NCBI GenBank assembly: GCA_037138355.1
Contig: JBAXIL010000052.1
Coordinates: 1 to 6,260 of the forward strand
Reading direction: 5' to 3'
DNA from: a bacterium
GTDB taxonomy: Bacteria; Oederibacteriota; PGYV01; Palsa-1178
DNA: 6,260 nucleotides
Of the stretch, positions 1-6,260 are shown one piece after another. The notes beneath the pieces are model-generated. The model saw nothing but the letters and a program-made list of their open reading frames with translations. It was not told the DNA's origin and ran no database searches. The translations under genes were made by a program, and so were the position numbers. Position 1 is the first letter of the stretch. Each line of letters opens with the position of its first letter.

Positions 1-3000
1 AACAGCATGTGCCTTTGGAAACATATATTTTATTTTCTTACAAGAAGTTATATACCACTCAGGAACCTTGTGTCTTCTCATAACATCTTCCCACTCTTTT
101 ATAAGTCCATTTCCTTTGCGAACACTTTCAGTAATTGCAAATGCTGTTACTTTTGAAATTTCCTTCGCTATCAAAAAGTTCATAATATCATCCCTGACAG
201 AAATAACTTCTTTTAATGTTGCGACCTTATTTTTTATTAATTCTTCTGCATTTCCATGCCATACATTTGTTCCATGCGACAGACCAGATATATATATCAA
301 ATCGCTGAAGGTTTTTGGTTTAGTGACAGCCAGCATTCCCCTGGTATTTTTTGTTCCATATTCTGGAATCCCTAAAGAACCTATTGCTGGATTATAATTT
401 TTGGGATCAACTCCCAAAACAGTCACTCCAGAAAATATTTTTAATGCCTCTTTATCATCTAAAGGTATGTCATCTACACTAATATGTAAACCTTCACATA
501 TATTTTTTATACTTGTCGGCATATCGTGTCCCAGTGCATCTATTTTAACAAGCGCATCATGTATGTAATCATATTCAAAATGAGTTGTTATTGTCTTAAA
601 ATCATTTGGTGGATTTTGTATCGGAGTAAAGTCATATATATCCATATCCTTTGGAACTAACATAAGCCCACCTGCATGTTGACTGGTAGAACGCTTAACC
701 CCAGCGCAACCCTTTGCAAGTCTTATTTTATTGGCTTCTCTTAATCGTTTTTTTGTTTTTTCCTCATATTTACTTAAAAAATCTTTCTTTATGGCATTAT
801 CCATAACTGTCAGAATCGTGCCAGCCCTATATACCTTTTCTACTCCAAATAAATCTACTAAATATTTATGTATAGTTTCCTGATATTCTCCTGCAAAATT
901 CAAATCTATATCTGGAACTTTATCTCCTTTGAAACCCATAAATGTTTCAAAAGGTATATTATAACCATCTTTTTTCAATTTATTTCCACATACAGGACAG
1001 TCTTTATCTTTCATATCTATACCTACAATATCCAAATCAAAGAACTCACTAAACTGGCAACCACCGCATATATAATGCGATTCTAATGGATTAACCTCTG
1101 AAATGCCACAAAGATAGGCAACAAGGGAGGAACCTACCGAACCTCTGGAACCTACTATATATCCATCTTGATTTGATTTCTCAACCATTTTTTTAGCAAT
1201 TAAATATAAAACCGAGTAATTATTTCCAATTATGGCTTTGAGCTCTCTATCAACTCTTTCCCTGACTATGTCCGGAAGATTTATTCCGTATATCTCTGCC
1301 GCCTTATCCCAACTTGTTTTTCTTATTTCTTCATCCGAGTTTTCAAGCGAAGGCGTGTGCAGAGTTTCAGGCACAGGCCGTATATTTGCTTCTATCATAT
1401 CTGAAATCAAGCGAGTATTAGTTACCACTACCTCTAAGGCCTTCTCTTTTCCCAAATAGGCGAATTCTTCAAGCATAGCCTCCGTGGTTTTAAAACTCAA
1501 ATCCGCAGTGGTTGTTTCTCCAATCTCATCATAGCCCTGAGCAGACATGAGAACATCTCTATATATTCTATCTGCAGGTTTCAGAAAATGTATATCCCCT
1601 GTGGCAACAACAGGAATATTATTCTCTTCTCCTATTGCACATATCTTTCTATTTATTTCATGCAAATCCTCAATAGTGCTGGCTTTGCCAATTCTTATCA
1701 AAAATTTATTGTTTTCATCTGGTTGTATTTCAAGATAATCATAAAATTGTGCAATGCTTTTTATCTCTTCATTACTCTTTTTCTCAAGCAAGGCCTGATA
1801 AAGTTCTCCCATAAAACAGGCGCTTCCAAGAACAAGTCCAGTTCTATGCTCTTTAAGTATTTCGCGTGGAATTCTTGGTTTTTTATAAAAATAATTAAGG
1901 TGTGACATAGATACAATTTTGTAAAGATTTCTCAAACCAATTTTGTTTTTAACTAAAATTATAATATGCATAGGTTTTTGTGTATCTTTTTCTTCTTCTT
2001 TATCTTCTCTGTTCATTTTAATATTTCTCTCTACCAAATACCCTTCCATTCCCATTATTAATTTAATTGCTTGCGGGCGTTTCTTATCATTAATAAAGTT
2101 ATAAGCATGAGGATACGCATGTACTACTCCATGATCAGTTATAGCCAAAGCTGTATGTCCCCACTTTACAGCTTGTTTTATATACTCTTCTACATTCGTT
2201 AAAGCATCCATTGCGCTCATTTGCGTATGCGCATGAAGCTCCACGCGCTTTACCTCTGCATTGTCAGTCACTTCAGGAGGACTTGTCACCTGAATTTTAT
2301 TTACCCTTCCTGTTATTTCTGCTTCTCCAGGAAAGTAATCAGCAGTCAAAGAGAGCTTGCCGTAAGTTAAGTTTTTTATTTCATCAAACAAACCATCTGA
2401 TTTTTCAATAAAACAACTCATTTTCATTGTTTCATTTTCATCTGTCACATAAAACAATACTATGGCAGAATCTACGCCATCTCGGCCTTTCATATCTTTA
2501 TAATAATCTTTTTCATTTATAATAAATATCCTTCCTTCCACTATATACTTTCCTGGATTAACTATATTTCCAATAGGTGTGACTTCTCCCTTTATTTCTT
2601 CATCTTTGAGCACCTTACTTTGAGTATTTCTTGATATTGTTATTTCTACACTTTTCACCACAGGAATTGGGAGTTTTTCATTTTCCACATTATCATTTTT
2701 TTCTATTAGCACTTCAGCATGTAAACCAGTAAACTCATTTATTTTCTTTCTTATTAGCATAATAGTTTTAACCCCAGACAACCTTGATATGGCTAAATCA
2801 TTACTGCATTGAAGAACAAGTCCGGTTTCTCCTATCTCAGGCACGGCATACTCTAACCATGTTCTTTCAGCATCAAACTTATCAAGAAATGCTTTCCACA
2901 TAGTTTTCACAGCTTGAGCTGCTGTTATTTCAACAGCAAAAGCCGGACTATATTTAACTTTTCTGCCGCCTGTCAAACCTGATATATAACCTGTAAATAA

Positions 3001-3192
3001 CTCCAGTGCTTGCGGTTCAAATAATCTATTAATAAACATGGTTATAGTGACAGAGTTATCAGTGTCATTTAATTCCATTGATTTAAATATGACAGAATCA
3101 GTAAGGCTGTCAGCCTTACCGTCAGAGAATGATTGCTTAATAAGTGCTTTCGTCTGCAGGTCGTCTATTACCATTTGTAAATTCAGGCCCAT
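1..3192 (-). CDS. polC: DNA polymerase III alpha subunit, PolC-type, lacking the inserted 3'-5' exonuclease domain; 3' end lies outside the window
   Basis: Manual translation from ATG 3192 (MGLNLQMVIDDLQ...) is open for 1064 codons to position 1. It shows PolC domain order and motifs: N-terminal domain, OB-fold before PHP, KRVELHAHTQMSAMDA, AITDHG, GMEGY, HIIILVKNKIGLRNLYKIVS, GSAC, YDYLEIQP, VATGDIH, GYIVGSRGSVGSS, EVNPL, Zn finger CGGC...CPVC, IPFETFMGFKGDKVPDIDLNF, KIDALGHD, SGLSHGTNVW, RDDIM, SCKKIKYMFPKAHA. Alternative in-frame starts are GTG 3198, TTG 3216 and ATG 3174. Confidence 0.97.
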   Translation of the reverse strand, partial: MGLNLQMVIDDLQTKALIKQSFSDGKADSLTDSVIFKSMELNDTDNSVTITMFINRLFEPQALELFTGYISGLTGGRKVKYSPAFAVEITAAQAVKTMWKAFLDKFDAERTWLEYAVPEIGETGLVLQCSNDLAISRLSGVKTIMLIRKKINEFTGLHAEVLIEKNDNVENEKLPIPVVKSVEITISRNTQSKVLKDEEIKGEVTPIGNIVNPGKYIVEGRIFIINEKDYYKDMKGRDGVDSAIVLFYVTDENETMKMSCFIEKSDGLFDEIKNLTYGKLSLTADYFPGEAEITGRVNKIQVTSPPEVTDNAEVKRVELHAHTQMSAMDALTNVEEYIKQAVKWGHTALAITDHGVVHAYPHAYNFINDKKRPQAIKLIMGMEGYLVERNIKMNREDKEEEKDTQKPMHIIILVKNKIGLRNLYKIVSMSHLNYFYKKPRIPREILKEHRTGLVLGSACFMGELYQALLEKKSNEEIKSIAQFYDYLEIQPDENNKFLIRIGKASTIEDLHEINRKICAIGEENNIPVVATGDIHFLKPADRIYRDVLMSAQGYDEIGETTTADLSFKTTEAMLEEFAYLGKEKALEVVVTNTRLISDMIEANIRPVPETLHTPSLENSDEEIRKTSWDKAAEIYGINLPDIVRERVDRELKAIIGNNYSVLYLIAKKMVEKSNQDGYIVGSRGSVGSSLVAYLCGISEVNPLESHYICGGCQFSEFFDLDIVGIDMKDKDCPVCGNKLKKDGYNIPFETFMGFKGDKVPDIDLNFAGEYQETIHKYLVDLFGVEKVYRAGTILTVMDNAIKKDFLSKYEEKTKKRLREANKIRLAKGCAGVKRSTSQHAGGLMLVPKDMDIYDFTPIQNPPNDFKTITTHFEYDYIHDALVKIDALGHDMPTSIKNICEGLHISVDDIPLDDKEALKIFSGVTVLGVDPKNYNPAIGSLGIPEYGTKNTRGMLAVTKPKTFSDLIYISGLSHGTNVWHGNAEELIKNKVATLKEVISVRDDIMNFLIAKEISKVTAFAITESVRKGNGLIKEWEDVMRRHKVPEWYITSCKKIKYMFPKAHAV
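538..912 (-). other. Polymerase catalytic aspartate triad region (D761, D763, D885)
   Basis: PDIDLNF at 915-895 and the Asp of KIDALGHD at 540-538 match the C-family polymerase catalytic motifs. Confidence 0.9.
988..1068 (-). other. PolC-specific C4 zinc finger in the palm region
   Basis: HYICGGCQF...KDCPVCG (C709, C712, C732, C735). This is characteristic of PolC and absent from DnaE. Confidence 0.9.
1381..2250 (-). other. PHP domain of PolC, contiguous with no exonuclease insertion; boundaries approximate
   Basis: Metal-ligand positions numbered from ATG 3192: H320, H322, D329, H354, E383, H409, C459, D533, H535. E383 and H409 are only 26 residues apart. Confidence 0.9.
2287..2580 (-). 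other. Probable OB-fold (ssDNA-binding) domain of PolC, divergent; boundaries approximate
   Basis: It lies immediately N-terminal to the PHP domain. Remnant motifs YIVEGRIF and FYVTDENETMKMSCF resemble the PolC OB consensus (vEGyvF...iTDytdSi.vk.F). Confidence 0.65.
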
Positions 3193-3197
3193 TATCA

Positions 3198-3203
3198 CAC
3201 CTT
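3198..3203 (-). promoter_or_regulatory. Ribosome-binding site for polC
   Basis: AAGGTG on the minus strand, 5 nt upstream of ATG 3192. Confidence 0.6.
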
Positions 3204-3247
3204 TATCTTGAGGCAAATGCCATTTATTTAATTTTATTTTTCACAAA

Positions 3248-3275
3248 ATTATACTCTTTAATTTGTTTTTAGCAA
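3248..3275 (-). promoter_or_regulatory. Putative sigma70/sigmaA promoter for polC
   Basis: Minus strand TTGCTA (3275-3270), 16-nt spacer, perfect TATAAT (3253-3248). It lies about 55 nt upstream of the start codon, with A-rich sequence further upstream. Confidence 0.65.
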
Positions 3276-3408
3276 GTTGATTTAAAGCTATATAAACATA
3301 TCTGTTTGGATTGTTTTTTCTTCTTTTGCTATTTTTTTCTTCTGTATTATTTAATAATAAATCGAACAAAAGAATTACTTGTCTAATACAGCTAAAAGCC
3401 AATATATA

Positions 3409-4269
3409 TTAAAATATTTTTTTAATAGCTTTTTTAAGTTTGTCTTTGAGCCCTTTTTGCATACTTGCATATTTAAGAATAGCCAATATATATTCAAACT
3501 TGTCGCCAGTGTCACAACGCACCCCTTCAAACTCATGTGCCAACAGGCCTTCCTTTTGCATCATAGTCCGTAAGGCATCTGTCAATTGTATTTCGCCTTT
3601 TGCTCCTGGTTTCGTCTCTCTTATATAATCAAATATCTTAGGGGAAAGCACATATCTACCTACTATTCCGAGATTAGAAAAAGCTTTTTCCACCTTTGGT
3701 TTTTCTGCCATGTCAAGTACCTGATAAATACGAGGTCGGAGTTTTTTTGGTTTTATTATTCCATAAGAACTAATTTTTTCTTTTGCAACTTTTTCTACTG
3801 CCACTACTCCACAACTTGCTTCTGTATAGATTTCAATCATTCTTTTCATGGCTGGTACTTTAGAGAAAATAAGGTCATCTGGTAAAAAAACAGCAAAAGG
3901 TTCATTACCTATAAAATCAGCCGCATGTAAAATAGCATGCCCTAAACCCATAGCTTCCTTCTGTCGTACTGAAAATATATTTACATTTTCAGGTATCCTT
4001 TTTAATTCTTCTAAGCTTGCAAAGTTTTTATTTTTATTGAGAAAATATTCCAGGTAGAAGTTTCTATCAAAATAGTCCTCAATAGAATACTTTTCTTTTG
4101 ATGTTATAAACAATATACTTTCTATTCCGGAATCTATGGCCTCTTGAACTATGAAATGAATTGCTGGAAGATCAATAATAGGTAGCATTTCCTTCGGAAT
4201 CGCCTTTGTGTATGGTAAAAACCTCGTGCCCAATCCAGCAACAGGTATTACGGCTTTTCTAACCTTCAT
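3409..4269 (-). CDS. galU: UTP--glucose-1-phosphate uridylyltransferase (UDP-glucose pyrophosphorylase), 286 aa
   Basis: Motifs KAVIPVAGLGTRFLPYTKAIPKEMLP, RQKEAMGLGHA, LPDD, EKP, GRYVL, GEIQLTDA. Start reassigned from 4308 to ATG 4269 (MKVRKAVIP) because of an AAGGAG RBS 7 nt upstream and the typical GalU N-terminus. Confidence 0.95.
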   Translation of the reverse strand: MKVRKAVIPVAGLGTRFLPYTKAIPKEMLPIIDLPAIHFIVQEAIDSGIESILFITSKEKYSIEDYFDRNFYLEYFLNKNKNFASLEELKRIPENVNIFSVRQKEAMGLGHAILHAADFIGNEPFAVFLPDDLIFSKVPAMKRMIEIYTEASCGVVAVEKVAKEKISSYGIIKPKKLRPRIYQVLDMAEKPKVEKAFSNLGIVGRYVLSPKIFDYIRETKPGAKGEIQLTDALRTMMQKEGLLAHEFEGVRCDTGDKFEYILAILKYASMQKGLKDKLKKAIKKIF

Positions 4270-6013
4270 TTTCAGTCTCCTTTTTCCCCGACGCCAGTTT
4301 TTTGTCAAGGGTTGTCATTACATGTTCTGATATCCTTGAAGCTTTTTCTTGTTTTAATGCAAATTCAGCTTCATCAATTGCTTCCTTAAACGATATATTG
4401 CGGACCAACTTTTTAGCAGAAAGTATTGACGAAGGTCCTACGGAGAGCTCATCAATACCAAGACCAATAAGTATAAAAGCTAAATGTGGTGCGCCTGCCA
4501 TTTCACCACAAACAGAAACTTTAATACCTGCCTTGTGAGCACTATCAGCAATCATTTTAATAAGTCTTAAAACAGCTGGATTTAAAGGATCGTAAAGATA
4601 CGAAACGGCTTCGTTTCCTCTATCGGCCGCTACTGTATATTGTATTAAATCATTGGTGCCAATCGAAAAGAAATCAACTTTTTTGGCAATCTCATCAGCC
4701 ATAATTGCAGCTGCTGGAACTTCAATCATTGCGCCTAAACTTATCTTCTCATCAAACTTAACTTCTTTTGTTTTTAGTTCTGCTTTAACTTCATTCACCA
4801 CTTTAACTGCCAAATCTATTTCTTCAGGATTTGTAATCATTGGGAACATCATTCTGACTTTTCCAAAAGCAGAGGCTCGTAATATAGCCCGAATTTGCGG
4901 CTTAAATATATTTATATTTGCCATAGAAAGTCTTATAGCCCGAAGTCCGAGATAGGGGTTTTGCTCTTGGACAATTTTAAAGTAAGGAAGAAACTTATCT
5001 CCACCTATGTCTAAAGTCCTTATGGTTACAGGTTTCGGATTCATTTTTTGTGCTATGCTTTTATATGCTTCAAATTGTTCTTCTTCTGATGGGAGGTTAG
5101 ATTTATTGATAAAAATAAACTCTGTTCTAAAAAGCCCAACCCCTTCTGCATTATTTTCAATTACAGCTGATATTTCTTCAGGGAACTCAATATTCGCCGT
5201 TAATCCAATCTTATGTTTGTCAGTAGTTATTGCCTCAAGTTTTTTAAAGCGATTAAGCAGTCTTAGCTTAGCTGTAAATTTTCTTTTTTCTTCTTTGTAA
5301 AAGTCAATTACTTTTTGAGTTGGCTTTACAACCACGATGCCTTGTTCCCCATCAATGATTACAAAATCTCCGGTTTTCGCAGTAGTCGTTATGTCCCTGA
5401 CTCCTACGACAGCAGGTATCTCCATAGAACGAGCCACAATAGCAGTATGAGATGTAGCACCGCCAAGTTCTGTTACGAACCCAAGAACATTATTCTTGTC
5501 CATATCAGCGGTATCTGCTGGAGATAAATCAGCTGCAATTATAATATATTTCTCAAATGATATTTTTGCTTCTTTAGTACCTGAGGATTCCAAATTACGA
5601 ATTATTTTATCTGCCAAAGAGCGTATATCACGGCTACGCTCTTTTAGATATGTATCAGAAATACGATTTGTAAACTCAGCATAGTTTTGAAGAACCATAT
5701 GCAAAGCATATTCACTTTTAATTAACTGTGTCCTTATAAGTTCTTCGGCTTTTCCCGTAAACATAGGGTCGCCCAATAATAGTAAATAAGCACTAAATAT
5801 TTCAGCTTCTGTCTTGCCCACTTCGTGCTCAATTTTTTCCTTTATTGCTGCCATTTCTGTCCTGGTTTTATCTACCGCAATTTTTAAGCGTAGTATTTCT
5901 TCTTCAATTTTTGCAGAAGGAATTGTTTCCTTACTAATTGTAAATGTCTTATTTGATATGACATGCGCCAACCCCATTACTATTCCGGGCGATGCTGCTA
6001 TACCTTTATACAT
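4259..6013 (-). CDS. ptsI: Phosphoenolpyruvate-protein phosphotransferase (PTS Enzyme I), 584 aa, no N-terminal GAF domain
   Basis: Motifs KGIAASPG, phospho-His motif GGATSHTAI, GVGLFRTE, RTLDIGGDK, NPYLGLRAIR, MIEVP, DFFSIGTNDLIQY and catalytic Cys in CGEMAG. Start reassigned from TTG 6031 to ATG 6013 (GGGGAGG RBS 9 nt upstream, 1 nt after the ptsH stop). Confidence 0.97.
   Translation of the reverse strand: MYKGIAASPGIVMGLAHVISNKTFTISKETIPSAKIEEEILRLKIAVDKTRTEMAAIKEKIEHEVGKTEAEIFSAYLLLLGDPMFTGKAEELIRTQLIKSEYALHMVLQNYAEFTNRISDTYLKERSRDIRSLADKIIRNLESSGTKEAKISFEKYIIIAADLSPADTADMDKNNVLGFVTELGGATSHTAIVARSMEIPAVVGVRDITTTAKTGDFVIIDGEQGIVVVKPTQKVIDFYKEEKRKFTAKLRLLNRFKKLEAITTDKHKIGLTANIEFPEEISAVIENNAEGVGLFRTEFIFINKSNLPSEEEQFEAYKSIAQKMNPKPVTIRTLDIGGDKFLPYFKIVQEQNPYLGLRAIRLSMANINIFKPQIRAILRASAFGKVRMMFPMITNPEEIDLAVKVVNEVKAELKTKEVKFDEKISLGAMIEVPAAAIMADEIAKKVDFFSIGTNDLIQYTVAADRGNEAVSYLYDPLNPAVLRLIKMIADSAHKAGIKVSVCGEMAGAPHLAFILIGLGIDELSVGPSSILSAKKLVRNISFKEAIDEAEFALKQEKASRISEHVMTTLDKKLASGKKETENEG
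4277..4282 (-). promoter_or_regulatory. Ribosome-binding site for galU (inside the ptsI 3' end)
   Basis: AAGGAG followed by 7 nt and ATG 4269. Confidence 0.8.
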
Positions 6014-6014
6014 T

Positions 6015-6260
6015 TTATTCCGCCTCCCCAAATTTGTCTGATATTATTTTAGCAAGTCTTGCAAGTGCTTCTTTGGCATCAGGGCCATCAGCTTTTATTT
6101 CAATTTCAACACCTTTTCCTGCTCCTAAGGTAGTTAAACCCATAATACTTTTTCCATCAGCTTCAATATTTCCATTTTTTACTTTAATATCTGCCTTAAA
6201 CTTTGATGCTTCTTTTACAAATACAGCAACGGCTCTCAAATGAAAACCAGCATTATTTAC
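6015..6260 (-). CDS. ptsH: Phosphocarrier protein HPr (5' end outside the window, about 8 codons missing)
   Basis: The frame stays open to the window edge: VNNAGFHLRAVAVFVKEASKF...DGKSIMGLTTLGAGKG...ADGPDAKEAL...KFGEAE*. The His15 equivalent is at 6242-6240 and the Ser46 equivalent (KSIMG) is exactly 31 residues later. The gene is directly upstream of ptsI. Confidence 0.95.
   Translation of the reverse strand, partial: VNNAGFHLRAVAVFVKEASKFKADIKVKNGNIEADGKSIMGLTTLGAGKGVEIEIKADGPDAKEALARLAKIISDKFGEAE
6023..6029 (-). promoter_or_regulatory. Ribosome-binding site for ptsI (inside the ptsH 3' end)
   Basis: GGGGAGG 9 nt upstream of ATG 6013. Confidence 0.8.

Follow-up and report, generated by a model that had tools for sequence, protein, structure and literature searches.

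Canonical PolC, the DNA polymerase III alpha subunit of Gram-positive type represented by the Geobacillus kaustophilus enzyme, carries a DnaQ-like DEDDh exonuclease (Exo) of about 190 amino acids between a glutamate and a histidine residue of its PHP domain, whereas the PolC encoded on the 6,260-nucleotide stretch of bacterial DNA analyzed here (the window) has none at this point. The locus raises two questions, namely, whether the domain is truly absent and, if it is, how DNA synthesis by such a polymerase may be proofread. An earlier note made from the sequence had proposed that this PolC is naturally Exo-less and about 1230 residues long, and we evaluated this proposal by means of profile searches, alignments with homologues, comparison with independent contigs, and phylogenetic trees.

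The polC Gene and Its Domains

The gene lies on the reverse strand, as do all features of the window described below, and occupies positions 1..3192, with its 3' end cut by the contig end. Its frame (3216..1) is open over 1072 codons. Translation probably begins at the ATG at 3192, giving 1064 residues in the window and a protein equal to P0002 (1064 aa), and a TTG at 3216 is an alternative start. The remaining 166 C-terminal residues were found on contig C53, across a gap of about 3 residues (about 9 nt) between the window contig, C52, and C53. The full protein thus reconstructed comprises about 1233 residues (1064 + about 3 + 166), in good agreement with the size that the earlier note had predicted and with the length of the closest homologues P0003, P0005, and P0006. 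The nearest homologue shows 88% identity, is also 1233 aa long, and is encoded on a 31.9-kb contig.

Identity as PolC was evident from family profiles: the 1072-aa cut protein scored 1096.5 bits against NF001688 (cut-off 873) and 1023.6 against TIGR01405, slightly below the cut-off of 1043.45, and the crystal structure PDB 3f2b aligned to residues 289-1071 with an E value of 1e-248. The region upstream of PHP (2242..3192) has no Pfam match, and its N-terminal domain (first ~190 residues) is divergent. There was also no Pfam call for the OB domain in the window PolC; the OB-region equivalent corresponds to PolC profile positions 209-330, and the NF001688 stretch 209-419 aligns to C52:1990-2643, running upstream of and into PHP. 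The polymerase core (Pfam DNA_pol3_alpha, 529..1329) contains the PDID motif at residues 768-771 (904-915) and a four-cysteine zinc finger, C717/C720/C740/C743 (988-1068), and is followed by the finger domain (DNA_pol3_finger, PF17657; residues 904-1036, 109..507). PDID, D893, and the four cysteines are invariant in alignment A2, which holds 25 sequences down to 48% identity; following the literature on PolC and the E. coli alpha subunit, we take the aspartates of PDID together with D893 to be catalytic and the cysteines to be zinc ligands. The C53 fragment (profile positions 1281-1444) matches HHH_6 with an E value of 1.8e-12 and terminates in QIVLF, a QxxLF clamp-binding motif. The catalytic, zinc-finger, and clamp motifs are all invariant in the 25 homologues.

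Absence of the Exonuclease at the PHP Junction

The junction at which the Exo domain would be expected spans 1966..2046 and consists of PHP residue E391 (of GMEG; 2046-2044), a loop of 25 residues, and PHP residue H417 (of MHIIIL; 1968-1966). Within it lies the charged linker of 20 aa (2031-1972) by which, according to the earlier note, the two PHP halves are joined with no frameshift or stop; the peptide quoted there is indeed present, and the frame is open across it. The loop is unconserved, and no consensus emerges across it in alignment A2. NF001688 matches the protein in two stretches, 209-419 and 600-1277, and skips positions 420-600, which represent Exo (about 180). The Pfam models of PHP, DNA_pol3_alpha, and the finger all match the window PolC, and RNase_T has no match there even at E<=1. 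Regular expressions for DEDDh motifs likewise returned nothing in the 1072 residues, as had been claimed for the visible protein, and nothing in the 166-aa C53 piece, the C-terminal part to which, as the earlier note had considered, such a domain might have been relocated.

The size of the missing piece could be estimated from an alignment of 143 PolCs, in which the stretch between the two PHP residues is 12-33 aa long in 98 sequences and 204-259 aa long in the other 45; with 25 residues, the window protein belongs to the short class. The difference between the classes corresponds to about 187-190 aa, close to the gap of about 190 aa relative to canonical PolC that had been foreseen. Among the PolCs of relatives, all 28 that were measured have a loop of 16-33 residues at the junction; the architecture is thus the rule in the clade, which, as the earlier note had itself anticipated, removes its novelty there and leaves the observation intact.

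Could the domain have been lost by assembly collapse, or could polC be a decaying pseudogene? The contig that carries the gene is short (6260 bp) and ends within polC, and support for the junction comes from contigs rather than raw reads, both of which may arouse such suspicion. However, the open frame over 1072 codons speaks against decay, and the junction is identical in contigs from two other studies, X2 (spanning 1841-2064) and X4 (spanning 1872-2042), in which this contig-level comparison revealed no joints or indels at the junction. The same architecture moreover recurs in the 28 relatives, in 98 of the 143 aligned sequences, and in the closest homologue with its much longer contig, so that an artefact or a pseudogene is extremely improbable. 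The absence of Exo from the window PolC is real and is no assembly artefact. In a further run, X3, a contig break falls at 1975-1978 and leaves the junction unbridged.

PHP Metal Site and Candidate Proofreading Activities

The PHP domain (1588..2241; Pfam PHP at residues 326-496) retains a complete nine-residue metal site, HHDHEHCDH, formed by H328, H330, D337, H362, E391, H417, C467, D541, and H543. The motif HHDHEH[C/H]DH is the published criterion for an "active" PHP (PMC12926913). The same nine residues occur in 98/98 Exo-less PolCs, and they are also kept in all 45 clostridial Exo-bearing PolCs of our sample, which means that the motif is not specific to the Exo-less forms. Among representatives clustered at 50% identity, the motif is intact in 50/51 Exo-less versus 70/103 Exo-bearing PolCs; a comparison of Exo state with PHP integrity over phylogenetically independent pairs had no power (13 pairs only, median p 1). 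Proofreading by a PHP domain is established for Mycobacterium tuberculosis DnaE1 (PMC5636811). A literature search with subscription journals outside its coverage found no activity data for any Exo-less PolC.

On the basis of these intact metal-site residues, which by themselves are no proof of exonuclease activity, the PHP site is likely to be an active proofreader. We consider it probable that the window gene is an intact, lineage-wide PolC that naturally lacks the DEDDh Exo and whose synthesis is proofread by its PHP domain. A short and variable surface loop joins the two PHP halves in place of the DnaQ-like insertion, and PHP may act on PolC products as a metal-dependent 3'-5' exonuclease, as it does in the DnaE1 enzymes of Mycobacterium and Thermus. 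A DnaE1-type polymerase is encoded as well, and the two enzymes constitute a "PolC + DnaE1" replication system such as that described for Clostridia. The evidence for this partner is a DnaE on contig C44, which scored 1248 bits on NF004226 (cut-off 1002), has an intact PHP motif, and stays far below the cut-offs of the Bacillus/Streptococcus-type models PRK06920 and PRK07279. Judging from the model names, we presume that NF004226 stands for DnaE1 and PRK06920/PRK07279 for DnaE3.

The presence of this DnaE1, complete and with its PHP motif intact, also lends itself to a reading in which PolC has a restricted role, as neither the main nor a proofread replicase, and DnaE1 performs the bulk of synthesis. 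Seven of the 41 phylum genomes contain DnaE only, and hence members of the phylum are able to live without PolC; a restricted PolC was also suggested for PolC + DnaE1 bacteria by Timinskas et al. (PMC3919608). We nevertheless regard this reading as quite unlikely, because the invariance of the PolC motifs in 25 homologues and the retention of PolC in 34/41 genomes argue for an essential, selected function.

Another source of proofreading might be a separate protein acting in trans, which would do the work of the Exo insertion in "split" form and could share the task with PHP or take it over. Contig C74 encodes the only RNase_T-family match of the 94%-complete assembly, a protein of 318 aa with a DEDDh domain and a BRCT-like C-terminal half. 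Its DEDDh residues, D7, E9, D93, H146, and D151, do not vary among 11 orthologues. The BRCT-like label of the C-terminal half is based on a match to the LigA model (E 3.4e-7) and on reading of the sequence, and Pfam gave no match for the half even at E<=10. The protein aligns with positions 424-603 of the PolC profile, which belong to Exo, at 72 bits and covers the full length of NF004844 (PRK06195, Pol III epsilon), for which, however, its 227.8 bits are under the cut-off of 373. It is present in 7/7 same-family genomes, and in mycobacteria a non-canonical DnaQ acts alongside PHP (PMC11348249). On the other hand, the C74 query had no match in 9/23 same-order genomes with Exo-less PolC, including G010 and G022 (99% complete), and the full-length form was not found in any other family of the phylum. 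Such a patchy distribution indicates that C74 is no obligate partner of Exo-less PolC, and DEDDh-BRCT proteins may instead serve repair. Proofreading in trans by C74 is accordingly rather doubtful in our estimation, and proofreading by PHP is the reading that we prefer.

Comparison with Known Polymerases

The Exo-less variant itself has been known since 2014. As reported in the survey by Timinskas et al. (2014, Nucleic Acids Res, PMC3919608), 6% of PolCs lack Exo, all of them paired with DnaE1, and apart from a single additional copy in Thermotogae they were confined to Clostridia and Negativicutes; the expectation of the earlier note that such proteins are "rare rather than unprecedented" was well founded. 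These Exo-less PolCs of Clostridia and Negativicutes resemble the window protein in having no Exo within PHP, DnaE1 rather than DnaE3 as partner, and a conserved PHP metal site. They differ in their hosts, and trees rooted with DnaE place the window clade outside the main group of PolCs. Exo-less homologues that we can name include Heliobacterium chlorum P0118 and proteins of Desulfosporosinus and Peptococcaceae.

With canonical PolC (G. kaustophilus 3F2B and the full-length 9QPC), the window protein shares PHP, polymerase, zinc finger, finger, and C-terminal HhH with clamp motif. The structure 9qpc aligns to it in two stretches and 3f2b in one, because Exo had been removed from the latter for crystallization; the removal was reportedly engineered by Evans et al. 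in 2008. The short Gly/Ser bridge of the 3f2b construct falls exactly opposite the window loop, and the crystallized construct shows that PolC is able to fold when Exo is missing from this position. The absence of Exo from 3F2B is also stated in the survey (PMC3919608). The PHP domains of the two proteins differ at one position of the metal site, at which G. kaustophilus PolC has N (TGNVH) where the window PolC has D541 (TGDIH), so that the motif is incomplete in the former and complete in the latter.

The same nine-residue site, HHDHEH[C/H]DH, characterizes the DnaE1 enzymes of M. tuberculosis and T. thermophilus, which proofread without a DnaQ domain (PMC5636811); these enzymes are DnaE1, whereas the window enzyme is a PolC and only a putative PHP proofreader. 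In the alpha-epsilon system of E. coli, the DEDDh exonuclease is a separate protein, as is that of C74, which resembles the epsilon model PRK06195; it differs from E. coli epsilon in its score below the family cut-off, in the BRCT-like tail that stands where epsilon has its C-terminal peptide, and in its patchy occurrence among relatives. To the idea that proofreading by PHP came first, and that the DnaQ insertion was added later and can be dispensed with, the window PolC contributes a clean natural case, and it also offers a natural enzyme with which PHP-based proofreading may be tested in PolC.

Host Distribution and Phylogeny

The host is a freshwater bacterium whose lineage is labelled Candidatus Riflemargulisbacteria in the record of a contig identical to window positions 2836-4530, in the phylum Margulisiibacteriota, a sister group of Cyanobacteria. 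PolC-level matches occur in 34/41 genomes of the phylum (that of the window included), with no open frame longer than 1300 aa, and no PolC form other than the Exo-less type was seen in this 41-genome sample. What is new is the host, that is, an Exo-less PolC in a lineage that, by this record label, lies outside Firmicutes; our search found no literature joining Margulisbacteria with PolC. To the Clostridia and Negativicutes in which the variant was known, this adds a candidate phylum beside Cyanobacteria, an extension of modest importance.

In DnaE-rooted trees, the window clade, the Exo-less P0191 and P0145, and the Exo-bearing P0228 branch outside a crown (SH-aLRT 95) that holds 31/32 of the sampled Exo-bearing PolCs, and repeat trees had the same shape. 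This deep position makes the clade a useful taxon for dating the Exo insertion. A topology on which Exo could have been inserted just once was not rejected by the AU test (p 0.20, 42 rows), which, like the fast searches, was run under LG+F+G4, a model weaker against long-branch effects; AU tests do not separate Exo loss from ancestral absence. Somewhat speculatively, the ancestors of the PolC found in this order may at no time have carried the DnaQ insertion, in which case the ancestral PolC would have been PHP-proofread, and Exo would have been inserted later, toward the Firmicutes-type PolCs; we think this history possible, though improbable. Over the PolC tree, Exo was gained or lost at least 6-13 times, from which it appears that the domain is easily lost when PHP is intact.

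In G002, a genome of the same genus, polC contains two TGA codons in frame; they are located at a frame switch beside N's and do not represent a recoding signal.

Upstream of polC in the window is galU, encoding UTP-glucose-1-phosphate uridylyltransferase (3409..4308; TIGR01099 347.5 bits, cut-off 326.8), which is no part of the Exo finding. The other neighbors are ptsI for PTS enzyme I (4259..6031; TIGR01417 621.8 bits) and ptsH for HPr (6015..6260; TIGR01003 66.5 bits, profile positions 17-81), the 5' end of which runs off the contig.

Structure of the Exo-less PolC

The polC frame of the window runs on the minus strand from 3216 to 1, is open throughout, and leaves the contig at position 1; its start is likely the ATG at 3192, which gives 1064 residues and equals the database protein P0002. 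Canonical PolC carries a DEDDh (DnaQ-like) exonuclease (Exo) within its PHP domain, and the earlier note had described this gene as a natural PolC with the two PHP halves joined directly. We confirmed this architecture, and the junction proved to have been read exactly: E391 (GMEG) lies at 2046-2044, a charged 20-residue linker at 2031-1972, and H417 (MHIIIL) at 1968-1966. In the product of the 1072-codon frame (P0001), Pfam recognized PHP (residues 326-496), DNA_pol3_alpha and a finger domain, with no RNase_T match even at E<=1, and no DEDDh-type motif was found by regular expression. The curated PolC model NF001688 scored 1096.5 bits (cut-off 873), split into two stretches that covered positions 209-419 and 600-1277 in the genome-wide search and jumped about 180 DEDDh exonuclease positions. 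Our alignment of 143 rows comprised P0001, 114 hits from the database (each at least 1100 aa) and 28 frames from relatives (each at least 1000 aa), leaving out shorter fragments, P0002 and the 871-aa frame L031. The PHP E-to-H distance was sharply bimodal in this set, with 12-33 residues in 98 rows (25 in the window) and 204-259 in 45.

The C-terminal piece of the gene (L006) was found at the end of another contig of the assembly (C53, 1498-1998). Its 166 codons match NF001688 positions 1281-1444, include an HHH_6 domain, and end in QIVLF. The contig break falls inside polC, between window positions 1-30 and the end of C53, and the consensus of 25 homologues indicates that about 3 residues are lost there; the reconstructed PolC is therefore about 1233 aa long, as are its closest homologues (88-76% identity), in line with the roughly 1230 aa predicted beforehand. 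An Exo relocated to the C-terminus, which the earlier note had considered, is not there: the C53 piece completes PolC without it.

Evans et al. 2008 reportedly engineered their G. kaustophilus PolC construct to lack Exo. The window PolC aligned to this construct (PDB 3f2b) in one stretch (E 1e-248), with the short Gly/Ser bridge of the construct opposite the window's loop, whereas full-length PolC (9qpc) aligned in two stretches. The Fig. 1 legend of Timinskas et al. gives 3f2b as a structure without Exo (PMC3919608). Invariant positions across 25 homologues down to 48% identity include PDID (768-771), D893 and the four cysteines of the zinc finger, among many others; the loop columns have no consensus. 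The window protein is a complete PolC under selection, in which a variable surface loop joins the PHP halves.

The stretch 1500-2500 is present in 20 public runs, which come from 14 studies and carry freshwater or lake metagenome labels. We compared the window with contigs, rather than reads, from four of these runs. The possible source run spanned the stretch without any difference, contigs of runs X2 and X4 covered 1841-2064 and 1872-2042, respectively, and run X3 had a contig break at 1975-1978; the comparison with the four runs showed neither joints nor insertions nor loose ends. Because these contigs and the homologues agree, an assembly collapse at the junction is very unlikely.

Known variant in a new phylum

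The Exo insertion was reported in 2014 to be absent from 6% of PolC sequences, all of them in Clostridia and Negativicutes except for one extra copy in Thermotogae, and every one in a genome with PolC and DnaE1 (Timinskas et al. 2014, PMC3919608). Our database search gave named Exo-less examples from Heliobacterium chlorum, Desulfosporosinus and Peptococcaceae, and also MAG proteins with the label Candidatus Goldbacteria. The architecture is thus not new, and the interpretation in the earlier note is supported together with its caveat that such PolCs may be rare rather than unprecedented. The window PolC differs from the variant of 2014 in its host: over 2836-4530 the window is identical to a 1695-bp contig labelled Candidatus Riflemargulisbacteria, phylum Margulisiibacteriota. 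No paper in the searchable literature combined "Margulisbacteria" with "PolC", and neither Margulis nor candidate phyla are mentioned in the main text of a 2026 survey (PMC12926913). The window PolC is a new member, in a new phylum, of the variant described in 2014.

PolC-level matches occurred in 34 of 41 same-phylum genomes, the window's own included, and no open frame exceeded 1300 aa in these 34; the loop was 16-33 residues long in all 28 relatives' PolCs measured. The other seven genomes (G025, G026, G027, G032, G033, G038 and G039; families f12-f14) had DnaE-level matches only, so that both PolC + DnaE1 and DnaE-only replication systems occur within the phylum. The polC of the same-genus genome G002 (L015, contig C156, about 1510-1580) contains two in-frame TGA codons; a code change was rejected, as both lie at a frame switch beside two N's and reflect an assembly defect.

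Loss or ancestral absence of Exo

All trees were built from the columns from PHP to the window's end, leaving out the insert columns, and had an outgroup of four DnaE sequences. With FastTree (158 rows) and with IQ-TREE (LG+C20, 63 rows, short search), the window fell into a clade with full support that contained only Exo-less PolCs of its own order. This clade, Exo-less P0191 and P0145, and Exo-bearing P0228 (labelled Hydrogenedentota) lay outside a crown group (SH-aLRT 95) that takes in the remaining 46 PolCs among the 63 rows, 31 of them Exo-bearing and 15 Exo-less. Well-supported branches carried at least 13 (FastTree) or at least 6 (IQ-TREE) changes of Exo state, and since recurrent insertion of one domain at an identical site is implausible, Exo loss is evidently frequent.

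This frequency elsewhere makes loss the default reading for the window lineage as well. The basal position of the window clade keeps alive the alternative of a pre-insertion state that never had Exo, which we consider rather unlikely. AU tests (42 rows, 722 columns, LG+F+G4, fast searches) did not reject a tree compatible with a single insertion after the window clade split off (p 0.20), Exo-bearing P0228 as the deepest PolC (p 0.59), a root beside the Bacillus-like clade (p 0.095), or monophyly of the whole phylum's PolCs (p 0.25). Given these outcomes and the very long DnaE outgroup branch, the data do not discriminate between loss and a pre-insertion state. Placement of the window clade beside Heliobacterium/Desulforamulus PolC was rejected (p 0.03).

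Candidate proofreaders

PHP-based proofreading has been established for M. tuberculosis DnaE1 (PMC5636811), and the intact PHP site of the window PolC would be a candidate exonuclease of the same kind. Its nine metal-site residues (H328, H330, D337, H362, E391, H417, C467, D541 and H543) form HHDHEHCDH, the motif by which the 2026 survey defines an "active" PHP domain (PMC12926913). PolC PHP metal sites are described as highly conserved (PMC3919608), and the motif was intact in 98/98 Exo-less and 45/45 Exo-bearing PolCs of the 143-row set. Among more broadly sampled representatives, taken at 50% identity, it was intact in 50 of 51 Exo-less versus 70 of 103 Exo-bearing PolCs; this contrast fits Exo loss only where PHP can proofread, and is suggestive only, because a phylogenetically independent comparison (13 pairs, median p 1) had no power. 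We infer that PHP probably proofreads for the window PolC.

Proofreading in trans is also possible. Contig C74 (241-1197, plus strand) encodes a free-standing 318-aa DEDDh exonuclease (L001), the sole RNase_T-family match in the assembly. Its DEDDh residues are invariant, it scored 72 bits against the Exo segment of the PolC profile, and its match to the "Pol III epsilon" model NF004844 was full-length but, at 227.8 bits, under the cut-off of 373. Its C-terminal half has no Pfam domain and is BRCT-like, with a weak match to the LigA model at its BRCT end. Orthologues occurred in 7/7 same-family and 14/23 same-order genomes, and were full-length in 11. The C74 query found none in nine same-order genomes with Exo-less PolC, two of them rated 99% complete, and the full-length form was found in none of the phylum's other families; the C74 protein is therefore not an obligate partner of Exo-less PolC.

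A second polymerase, encoded on contig C44, is DnaE1-like by its NF004226 score (1248 bits versus a cut-off of 1002) and has an intact PHP motif, and the cell therefore has a PolC + DnaE1 system. In another genome of the phylum (G036), the DnaE (L044, contig C1) has the deviating motif HHEKEHCDH and the Exo-less PolC keeps the full motif; the PolC PHP would be the sole intact candidate proofreader there.

Genomic context

The window is the entire contig C52 (6260 bp) of an assembly that comprises 1.66 Mb in 91 contigs, with a G+C content of 34.9% and an estimated completeness of 94%. For the same-genus genomes G001 and G002, sizes of about 3.4 and 2.7 Mb are given; either the markers overstate completeness, or genome size varies strongly within the genus. 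Upstream of polC, also on the minus strand, lie galU, ptsI and a 5'-truncated ptsH. The longest galU frame and the ptsI stop region share about 50 nt (4259-4308). Since the GalU model match begins at residue 16, translation of galU probably starts at the ATG that lies 13 codons further downstream.
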